64,000 bases of DNA from Escherichia coli. Lineage in GTDB: Bacteria > Pseudomonadota > Gammaproteobacteria > Enterobacterales > Enterobacteriaceae. Shown one piece after another: positions 12,001 to 15,000 of this stretch. The stretch lies in NCBI RefSeq assembly GCF_011045215.1, contig NZ_CP049201.1. The stretch is one strand, 5' to 3'. The position numbers were made by a program. Positions within the stretch are counted from its first letter, which is position 1; every line of letters starts with the position of its first letter.

Positions 12001-15000
12001 TGGCAACGTTATTATAATTAACTGTTGCTACTCCATTTAAGTTCACTCAGAAGAACTGGTCCACTTACGTTAGTTATTAAGCAAACGTTCGCTTTTATAA
12101 ACATAATCAGGATAAAAATGTTGGATTATTGCTAACCCAGCACAGCTAGTGCGCGTCTGTAATTATAAGGGAAAAACGATGAAGAATAAGGCTGATAACA
12201 AAAAAAGGAACTTCCTGACCCATAGTGAAATCGAATCACTCCTTAAAGCAGCAAATACCGGGCCTCATGCAGCACGTAATTATTGTCTGACTTTGCTTTG
12301 TTTTATTCATGGTTTCCGGGCGAGTGAAATTTGTCGATTGAGGATTTCGGATATTGATCTTAAGGCAAAGTGTATATATATCCATCGATTAAAAAAAGGC
12401 TTTTCAACAACGCACCCGCTATTGAACAAAGAAGTTCAGGCTTTAAAAAACTGGTTGAGTATCCGTACTTCGTACCCGCATGCTGAGAGCGAGTGGGTAT
12501 TTTTATCGCGTAAGGGTAATCCGCTTTCTCGGCAACAGTTTTACCATATTATCTCGACTTCCGGTGGTAATGCCGGGTTGTCACTGGAGATTCATCCGCA
12601 CATGTTACGCCATTCGTGTGGTTTTGCTTTGGCGAATATGGGAATAGATACGCGACTTATCCAGGATTATCTTGGGCATCGCAATATTCGTCATACTGTC
12701 TGGTATACCGCCAGCAATGCAGGGCGTTTTTACGGCATCTGGGATAGAGCCAGAGGACGACAGCGTCACGCTGTTTTATAGAGATAGTTGAGATACCAGG
12801 GATGGTGTTAAAAACTACATTATTCTTACGATATATCAAAAATGATTAACCATTTATTAATTGATGTTATTGTAAGTATAATTCTTAATTATCATAATAA
12901 ACATTAAGTTAACCATATCCATACAAAATACAATGGTTTATGTTCTTCAAAATAAATAAACAAAATCATTCATAAATTTACACATCACTTAAATTCTCCT
13001 GTTTTCGCACTTTTTTCTTTATTTTTTAAGCAACTGGAAGTTAATCCACTGCAATCTATTGTTATATTGAATCAAATCAATGAAAATAGATGTTGTCACA
13101 TCAGTGATATTTTATTTTTGTATGATATTTAATGTAATTGACTGATAGCCACATCACTTCGTGTGTGGTTATCTTTTTATCTATTGGGCTAATTTTGACC
13201 GATTGAGGTTTCCTATAGGTATTCATTCAAATATATCTCAGTTAGGAGTACTACTATTGTGAGTAAACGTCGTTATCTTACCGGTAAAGAAGTTCAGGCC
13301 ATGATGCAGGCGGTTTGTTACGGGGCAACGGGAGCCAGAGATTATTGTCTTATTCTGTTGGCATATCGGCATGGGATGCGTATTAGTGAACTGCTTGATC
13401 TGCATTATCAGGATCTTGACCTTAATGAAGGTCGAATAAATATTCGCCGACTGAAGAACGGATTTTCTACCGTTCACCCGTTACGTTTTGATGAGCGTGA
13501 AGCTGTGGAACGCTGGACCCTGGAACGTGCTAACTGGAAAGGCGCTGACCGGACCGACGCCATATTTATTTCTCGCCGCGGGAGTCGGCTTTCTCGCCAG
13601 CAGGCCTATCGCATTATTCGTGATGCCGGTATTGAAGCTGGAACCGTAACGCAGACTCATCCTCATATGTTAAGGCATGCTTGCGGTTATGAACTGGCGG
13701 AGCGTGGTGCCGATACCCGTTTAATTCAGGATTATCTCGGGCATCGAAATATTCGCCATACTGTGCGTTATACCGCCAGTAATGCTGCTCGTTTTGCCGG
13801 ATTATGGGAAAGAAATAATCTCATAAACGAAAAATTAAAAAGAGAAGAGGTTTGATTTAACTTATTGATAATAAAGTTAAAAAACAAATAAATACAAGAC
13901 AATTGGGGCCAAACTGTCCATATCATAAATAAGTTACGTATTTTTTCTCAAGCATAAAAATTTTAAAAAACGACAAAAATCATCTAACTGTTTGATATGT
14001 AAATTATTTCTCTTGTAAATTAATTTCACATCACCTCCGCTATATGTAAAGCTAACGTTTCTGTGGCTCGACGCATCTTCCTCATTCTTCTCTCCAAAAA
14101 CCACCTCATGCAATATAAAAATCTATAAATAAAGATAATAACAGAATATTAAGCTAACAAATAAACTGAAAAAGTTTGTGCGCGATGCTTTCCTCTATGA
14201 GTCAAAATGGCCCCAAATGTTTCATCTTTTGGGGGAAAACTGTGCAGTGTTGGCAGTCAAACTCGTTGACAAAACAAAGTGTACAGAACGACTGCCCATG
14301 TCGATTTAGAAATAGTTTTTTTAAAGGAAAGCAGCATGAAAATTAAAACTCTGGCAATCGTTGTTCTGTCGGCTCTGTCCCTCAGTTCCGCAGCGGCTCT
14401 GGCCGATACTACGACGGTAAATGGTGGGACCGTTCACTTTAAAGGGGAAGTTGTTAATGCCGCTTGCGCAGTTGATGCAGGCTCTGTTGATCAAACCGTT
14501 CAGTTAGGTCAGGCTCGTACCGCTTCGCTGGACCAGGATGGAGCGACCAGCTCTGCTGTCGGTTTTAACATTCAGCTGAATGATTGCGATACCGATGTTG
14601 CAAGCAAAGCTGCTGTTGCCTTCTTAGGTACAACAATTGACACGAATCATACCAACGTACTGGCTCTGCAGAGTTCTGCTGCGGGTAGCGCAACAAACGT
14701 TGGTGTACAGATCCTGGATAAAACAGGAGCTGCGTTGGCGCTGGATGGTGCGTCATTTAGTGCACAAACAACCCTGAATAACGGAACCAACACCATTCCG
14801 TTCCAGGCGCGTTATTATGCAATTGGTGCCGCAACCCCTGGCGCAGCTAATGCGGATGCGACCTTCAAGGTTCAGTATCAATAACCTACCCAGGTTCAGG
14901 GACGTCATTACGGGCAGGGATGCCCACCCTTGTGCGATAAAAATAACGATGAAAAGGAAGAGATTATTTCTATTAGCGTCGTTGCTGCCAATGTTTGCTC

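Follow-up and report, generated by a model that had tools for sequence, protein, structure and literature searches.

A canonical Escherichia coli fimS element recorded in the phase-OFF orientation

The fimS element and its neighbouring genes

The stretch of Escherichia coli DNA that we analysed, 64,000 nucleotides long and referred to here as the window, contains an invertible element at positions 13903..14216. The element is bordered by the 9-bp inverted repeats TTGGGGCCA on the left, fimE-proximal side (IRL, 13903..13911) and TGGCCCCAA on the right, fimA-proximal side (IRR, 14208..14216). The repeat pair is perfect over all 9 bp, the segment between the borders is exactly 314 bp, and its GC content is 31.8%. 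An intact fimE (13259-13855) precedes the element and fimA (14336-14884) follows it. Matching complete E. coli genomes label the flanking ORFs fimE (type 1 fimbria switch DNA invertase) and fimA, and carry the same annotation for the two recombinase genes, fimB and fimE, that lie directly upstream. The original prediction, made from the sequence by itself, had placed a 314-bp fim switch at 13903-14216; the repeats, the length, and the fimE and fimA flanks showed that both its coordinates and its identity were right. We concluded that this element is fimS itself and not an analogue of another switch. The ipuS switch of UPEC, the hin/H segment of Salmonella, and the flg and cwpV switches of Clostridioides difficile follow the same logic of flipping between inverted repeats (PMC6458436, PMC5386303), but their loci, repeats, and recombinases differ from those of fimS in the window. 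In contrast, the fimS of K-12 and UPEC has the same locus, repeats, length, promoter hexamers, IHF consensus sites, and BstUI site. Differences from MG1655 were allelic only, consisting of eight SNPs inside fimS and one fewer A upstream of IRL, together with changes in FimE and FimA described below. The alignment with K-12 was gap-free inside fimS, and the missing A was its sole gap.

Both recombinase genes are open. The gene fimB (12179..12781, plus strand), a 200-aa ORF with an ATG start, encodes the tyrosine recombinase responsible for inversion of fimS in either direction; its product is identical to that of K-12 at 200 of 200 residues, and no IS insertion was found in it. The gene fimE (13259..13855, plus strand), a 198-aa ORF that begins with GTG and is uninterrupted by stop codons, encodes the tyrosine recombinase that turns fimS from ON to OFF. 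Its product differs from K-12 FimE at one residue, Q88L (codon 88 at 13520-13522); Leu is present at this position in the window and in Combat11I9, and Gln in K-12, UTI89, and 23CRST029. The half-sites bound by FimB and FimE flank the repeats, and strand exchange takes place inside the repeats, in a synapse shaped by IHF and Lrp, with FimE acting from ON to OFF and FimB acting in both directions at low frequency (PMC9993118, PMC9096935, PMC11316696, PMC3911127). Of the two IHF sites, IHF-1 adjoins IRL, and IHF-2 is internal to fimS and enhances the fimA promoter (PMC9993118). Putative sites with an intact consensus were predicted at both of the expected positions. The first (13858..13870, minus strand), TATCAATAAGTTA, fits the consensus WATCAANNNNTTR and lies outside fimS, adjoining the left repeat; the second (13985..13997, minus strand), TATCAAACAGTTA, lies inside fimS, upstream of the fimA promoter, PfimA.

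Downstream of the switch, fimA (14336..14884, plus strand) is a 182-aa ORF for the type 1 fimbrial major subunit. Its product is identical to K-12 FimA at 165 of 182 residues, and we therefore regard it as a variant allele. It is followed by fimI, fimC, fimD, fimF, fimG, and fimH (14949..20931, plus strand), with ORFs of 179, 241, 878, ~176, ~167, and 300 aa, all of them open and in the order found in annotated genomes. The fimA-fimI spacer is wholly identical to that of K-12, and the 35-nt sRNA FimR2 of K-12, which is annotated in NC_000913.3 just past fimA, lies unchanged at 14895-14929 (plus strand), although Rfam at its gathering threshold did not report FimR2 at that position. FimR2 is described as derived from a 3'-UTR (PMC9723502), and thus FimR2 production, too, may require the ON state of the switch.

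Orientation of the switch

Transcription of fimAICDFGH from the promoter inside fimS takes place only in the ON state (PMC9993118, PMC9096935, PMC11316696, PMC3911127). A promoter consensus scan of positions 13800-14400 gave as its best match, at 10 of 12 consensus positions, a minus-strand site (13951..13922) made up of the −35 hexamer TTGAGA (13946..13951), an 18-nt spacer, and the −10 hexamer TATGAT (13922..13927). This site is set 11 bp inward from the fimE-proximal repeat and is directed at fimE and away from fimA. The original prediction had described a minus-strand promoter that adjoins the fimE-proximal repeat and faces fimE, and in these respects it held; its spacer of 17 bp must be corrected to 18 bp. 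It had also called this promoter the only good one inside fimS. The site is indeed the best match, but a weaker one, TTGATA-18-TAAATT, which lies on the plus strand in the middle of the element (13992-14021) and matches at 9 of 12 positions, had gone unmentioned. As had been anticipated, the scan of 13800-14400 found no promoter-like match adjoining the fimA-proximal repeat, and hence no comparable rightward promoter there.

The two promoter-like matches observed in the scanned region are to be set against 1.9 ± 1.5 in shuffled sequences, as the DNA is AT-rich, and we therefore rejected the consensus scan as stand-alone evidence for a promoter. Since the number of matches is at the level of chance, the identity of the promoter rests on homology with K-12. 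We named the minus-strand motif PfimA because the fimE-fimA intergenic region, which is ~98% identical to that of MG1655 (mean column identity 99% in a three-sequence alignment), is collinear with the characterised K-12 switch. The hexamers are identical in MG1655, in UTI89, and, inverted, in 23CRST029. The fimA transcription start would be expected on the minus strand, near 13915-13917. Full-text literature searches for a published mapped fimA transcription start or published hexamers gave nothing usable.

The orientation of fimS can be assayed by PCR with primers OL20 and OL4 followed by digestion at a unique BstUI site in the element; fragments of 539 and 187 bp denote OFF, those of 433 and 293 bp denote ON, and the pattern has been calibrated on populations whose ON or OFF state was verified with a reporter (PMC9993118). 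The window contains exact matches to both primers, at 13644-13664 and 14351-14370, and the unique BstUI site (CGCG, 14181..14184) lies 24 bp inside IRR, a position that gives the OFF fragment pattern. When this assay was carried out in silico, the window yielded fragments of 539 and 188 bp, which is the OFF pattern; after reverse-complementing 13903-14216, the fragments were 293 and 434 bp, which is the ON pattern. MG1655 yielded 540 and 188 bp in the same assay. The amplicon from the window is 727 bp relative to the published 726 bp, a 1-bp difference without effect on the pattern.

Comparison with reference sequences of each orientation gave the same answer. The switch is OFF in the UTI89 reference genome (PMC6458436), and that of the window aligned collinearly with both UTI89 and MG1655 and thus has the orientation of both references. 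The genome of 23CRST029 (NZ_AP045796.1), on the other hand, could be matched along the whole length (100%) of a synthetic ON construct, with an identity of 99.2%. In that genome TTGAGA...TATGAT stands directly before TGGCCCCAA, beside the fimA-proximal repeat and facing fimA. Its alignment with the window was perfect up to IRL, broken across fimS, and perfect again from IRR onward. This natural ON genome therefore holds the same element reverse-complemented, with its breakpoints at the repeats. The window, then, is collinear with the OFF sequence of UTI89 and departs from the ON sequence of 23CRST029 precisely at the repeats.

These results bear on the proposal that the minus-strand motif is something other than the fimA promoter, in which case the element might really be ON and fimA might be transcribed from another, rightward promoter. 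The weak rightward match at 13992-14021 (9 of 12) offers a candidate for such a promoter, and a regional count of promoter-like matches at the level of chance would leave room for it. That match, however, has the lower score and lies ~190 bp from IRR; moreover, the restriction fragment pattern, with its reporter calibration, was that of OFF, and UTI89, with the same orientation, is described as OFF. We consider that a switch really in the ON state has next to no chance of being the correct reading.

Base composition also differed between the two orientations of the element. On the fimE-sense strand, the stretch from 14030 to 14155 (plus strand) is C-rich and G-poor, with C/G ratios of 3.0-4.75 in 78-nt windows in the present orientation; with fimS inverted, the same stretch has ratios of ~0.2-0.6, and the high ratio is thus limited to the present orientation. 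Rho utilisation sites typically have such a C-rich, G-poor composition. We infer from the composition computed here that 14030..14155 is a rut-like stretch and a candidate OFF-specific Rho-dependent terminator of fimE, with its position putative. With fimS in the OFF state, the fimE mRNA is stated to run into a terminator that depends on Rho (PMC5386303, citing Joyce and Dorman 2002), and this terminator is likewise described as specific to OFF (PMC9993118); separately, fimE expression is reported to be lower in afimbriate cells (PMC3911127). A C-rich fimE-sense face that exists only in the present orientation fits a terminator reported to act in OFF. No intrinsic terminator was predicted in 13800-14400, which fits a Rho-dependent mechanism.

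The in silico BstUI assay, the collinearity with UTI89, the breakpoints relative to the ON genome, and the strand composition all agreed with the phase-OFF assignment of the original prediction, and none of the evidence spoke against it. We are thus highly confident that 13903-14216 is a canonical E. coli fimS element recorded in phase OFF.

Prevalence of OFF and the capacity of the switch to invert

To place this orientation among those of other genomes, we compared a 901-bp query (13600-14500) with 5426 complete E. coli genomes, counting a genome as collinear when at least 80% of the query was matched. The switch query matched 4725 of the 5426. Genomes collinear with the window (OFF) numbered 4458, and those collinear with a query carrying the inverted element (ON) numbered 251, so that ~94.7% of the resolvable assemblies were OFF and ~5.3% ON, in a set of assemblies that are non-independent and clonally oversampled and whose culture conditions are unspecified. 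Both orientations therefore occur naturally, with breakpoints at the repeats, as was seen in 23CRST029. FimE activity predominates, with the result that most wild-type cells are non-piliated (PMC9096935); OFF is the normal default because switching from ON to OFF by FimE is much faster than switching from OFF to ON by FimB. The OFF state in the window is the ordinary and expected default for assemblies, and the fimS found here is a textbook invertible promoter in its common state, already known as such. The ~5% of complete E. coli assemblies that are ON can serve as a baseline for judging fimS in other sequences.

The same counts bear on what the recorded orientation says about the sequenced culture. 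As cultures are mixtures and an assembly gives a single path, the record might be uninformative, the assembler having picked arbitrarily between two roughly equal orientations. Such a choice would be expected to give about 50:50 across assemblies, and the split observed was 4458:251; this split fits the known FimE-driven bias toward OFF (PMC9096935), and consensus assemblers go with the majority of reads. An arbitrary choice is in our judgement quite improbable. Because a consensus assembly follows the read majority, an OFF assembly points instead to a culture with an OFF majority, and the DNA preparation probably came mostly from OFF cells. The term "non-fimbriate", which the original prediction had used, would thus apply at most to the majority of the sequenced culture and would not be a property of the strain.

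An OFF orientation could also arise in a strain that is never fimbriate, if the switch were genetically locked OFF, either by a deletion of the kind present in EHEC O157:H7 or by inactivation of fimB. The EHEC O157:H7 switch is OFF, like that of the window, and is locked in this state through a 16-bp deletion. In the literature the locking of the O157:H7 switch is ascribed to a regulatory mutation (PMC6458436). The OFF orientation itself, the Q88L change in FimE relative to K-12, and the eight single-base differences from K-12 in the switch could all be taken to favour a locked state in the window as well. The O157:H7 matches, however, spanned 885 bp of the 901-bp query and were thus 16 bp shorter, whereas the window is without this deletion, aligns free of gaps in fimS, and has a full-length switch of 314 bp with perfect repeats. 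Moreover, FimB is identical to that of K-12 and its gene carries no IS insertion, both IHF consensus sites are intact, and the change in FimE would, if anything, reduce switching from ON to OFF. With neither the EHEC-type deletion nor damage to fimB present, we rejected the locked-OFF variant as highly improbable. Judged from its sequence, the switch does not look locked and appears able to invert. As the switch is intact, along with the two recombinases and the complete fim operon, the strain is expected to produce fimbriae when conditions allow it.

Taken together with published work on the system, these features suggest the following model. FimB and FimE would cut and rejoin the DNA within the 9-bp repeats, aided by IHF and Lrp, and thereby flip the 314-bp segment. 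The sole promoter of fimAICDFGH, placed near one end of fimS, would in the present orientation fire toward fimE, and fimA would be disconnected from it. With the promoter turned to fimE, the fimbrial operon is left promoterless, and cells with this arrangement would make no type 1 fimbriae. In OFF, the fimE transcript would enter the C-rich face of fimS, where the Rho-dependent terminator would lower the amount of fimE mRNA, and this low level would leave FimB to carry out the rare OFF-to-ON events. We can also imagine, as a long shot, that an antisense transcript running from PfimA into the 3' end of fimE might help, alongside the Rho-dependent terminator, to keep FimE low in OFF cells, and that Q88L and the eight SNPs of this lineage might alter the set-point between ON and OFF. 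An antisense effect of this kind was already raised in earlier work on K-12.

For annotation, it follows that where fimS is OFF in the record, the annotation of PfimA should go on the opposite strand from that of fimA. A prediction of expression made from the assembly alone would wrongly leave fimA with no promoter, and an OFF orientation in the record should not be taken as the phenotype of the strain. Beyond correct annotation the significance of the finding is small.

Defence genes and other features of the wider window

The segment containing fim, uxu, and yji genes is flanked by restriction and defence genes, which form one cluster at 683-7828 and another at 51478-61606. Together these clusters hold a phosphorothioate-DNA-binding endonuclease, two proteins of the GmrSD type, SymR/symE, a putative hsdRMS type I system, and an mrr that is apparently truncated. 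The left cluster (683-7828) lies upstream of nanS/nanM/nanC. It includes a gene for a 638-aa GmrSD_N protein (683-2599, minus strand) that matches PADLOC NsnA, a gene for a phosphorothioated-DNA-binding restriction endonuclease (6169-7098, minus strand), and a gene for an HNH protein (7178-7828, plus strand); UTI89 has the same phosphorothioated-DNA endonuclease at the equivalent place. Also in this cluster are two adjacent plus-strand ORFs of 183 aa (3500-4051) and 482 aa (4099-5547). Neither had a hit in NCBIfam or Pfam, and their sole PADLOC match was negligible (PDC-M29B, E = 8e-4); the two might form a pair of defence genes that is as yet uncharacterised.

The right cluster (51478-61606) is of the immigration-control type. 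It contains a full GmrSD of 697 aa with N and C domains and DUF5655 (51478-53571) and the SymR antitoxin RNA (53954-54030), which scored 90.9 bits. The minus-strand ORFs from 54187 to 60738 we read, by their size and position only, as putative hsdS, hsdM, and hsdR of a type I restriction-modification system. The Mrr-like ORF at 60926-61606 (plus strand) encodes 226 aa, with a full Mrr_N followed by positions 2-58 of the 115 positions of the Mrr catalytic domain and then a stop, beyond which the frame appears scrambled; this ORF is probably what is left of mrr after a frameshift or truncation.

The 25 kb from 27001 to 52000 had a best identity of 98.2% among the 5426 complete E. coli genomes, relative to 99.7% for the fim switch region, and only 562 genomes covered at least 80% of it. 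This low identity may mean that the source lineage is poorly represented or that the region is mosaic. An intact gene for a 735-aa pentapeptide-repeat protein of the EspX6 type, whose annotation is that of a T3SS-effector-like protein, lies at 40596-42803 (minus strand); in strain TUM18780 the EspX6-type gene is split by IS1.
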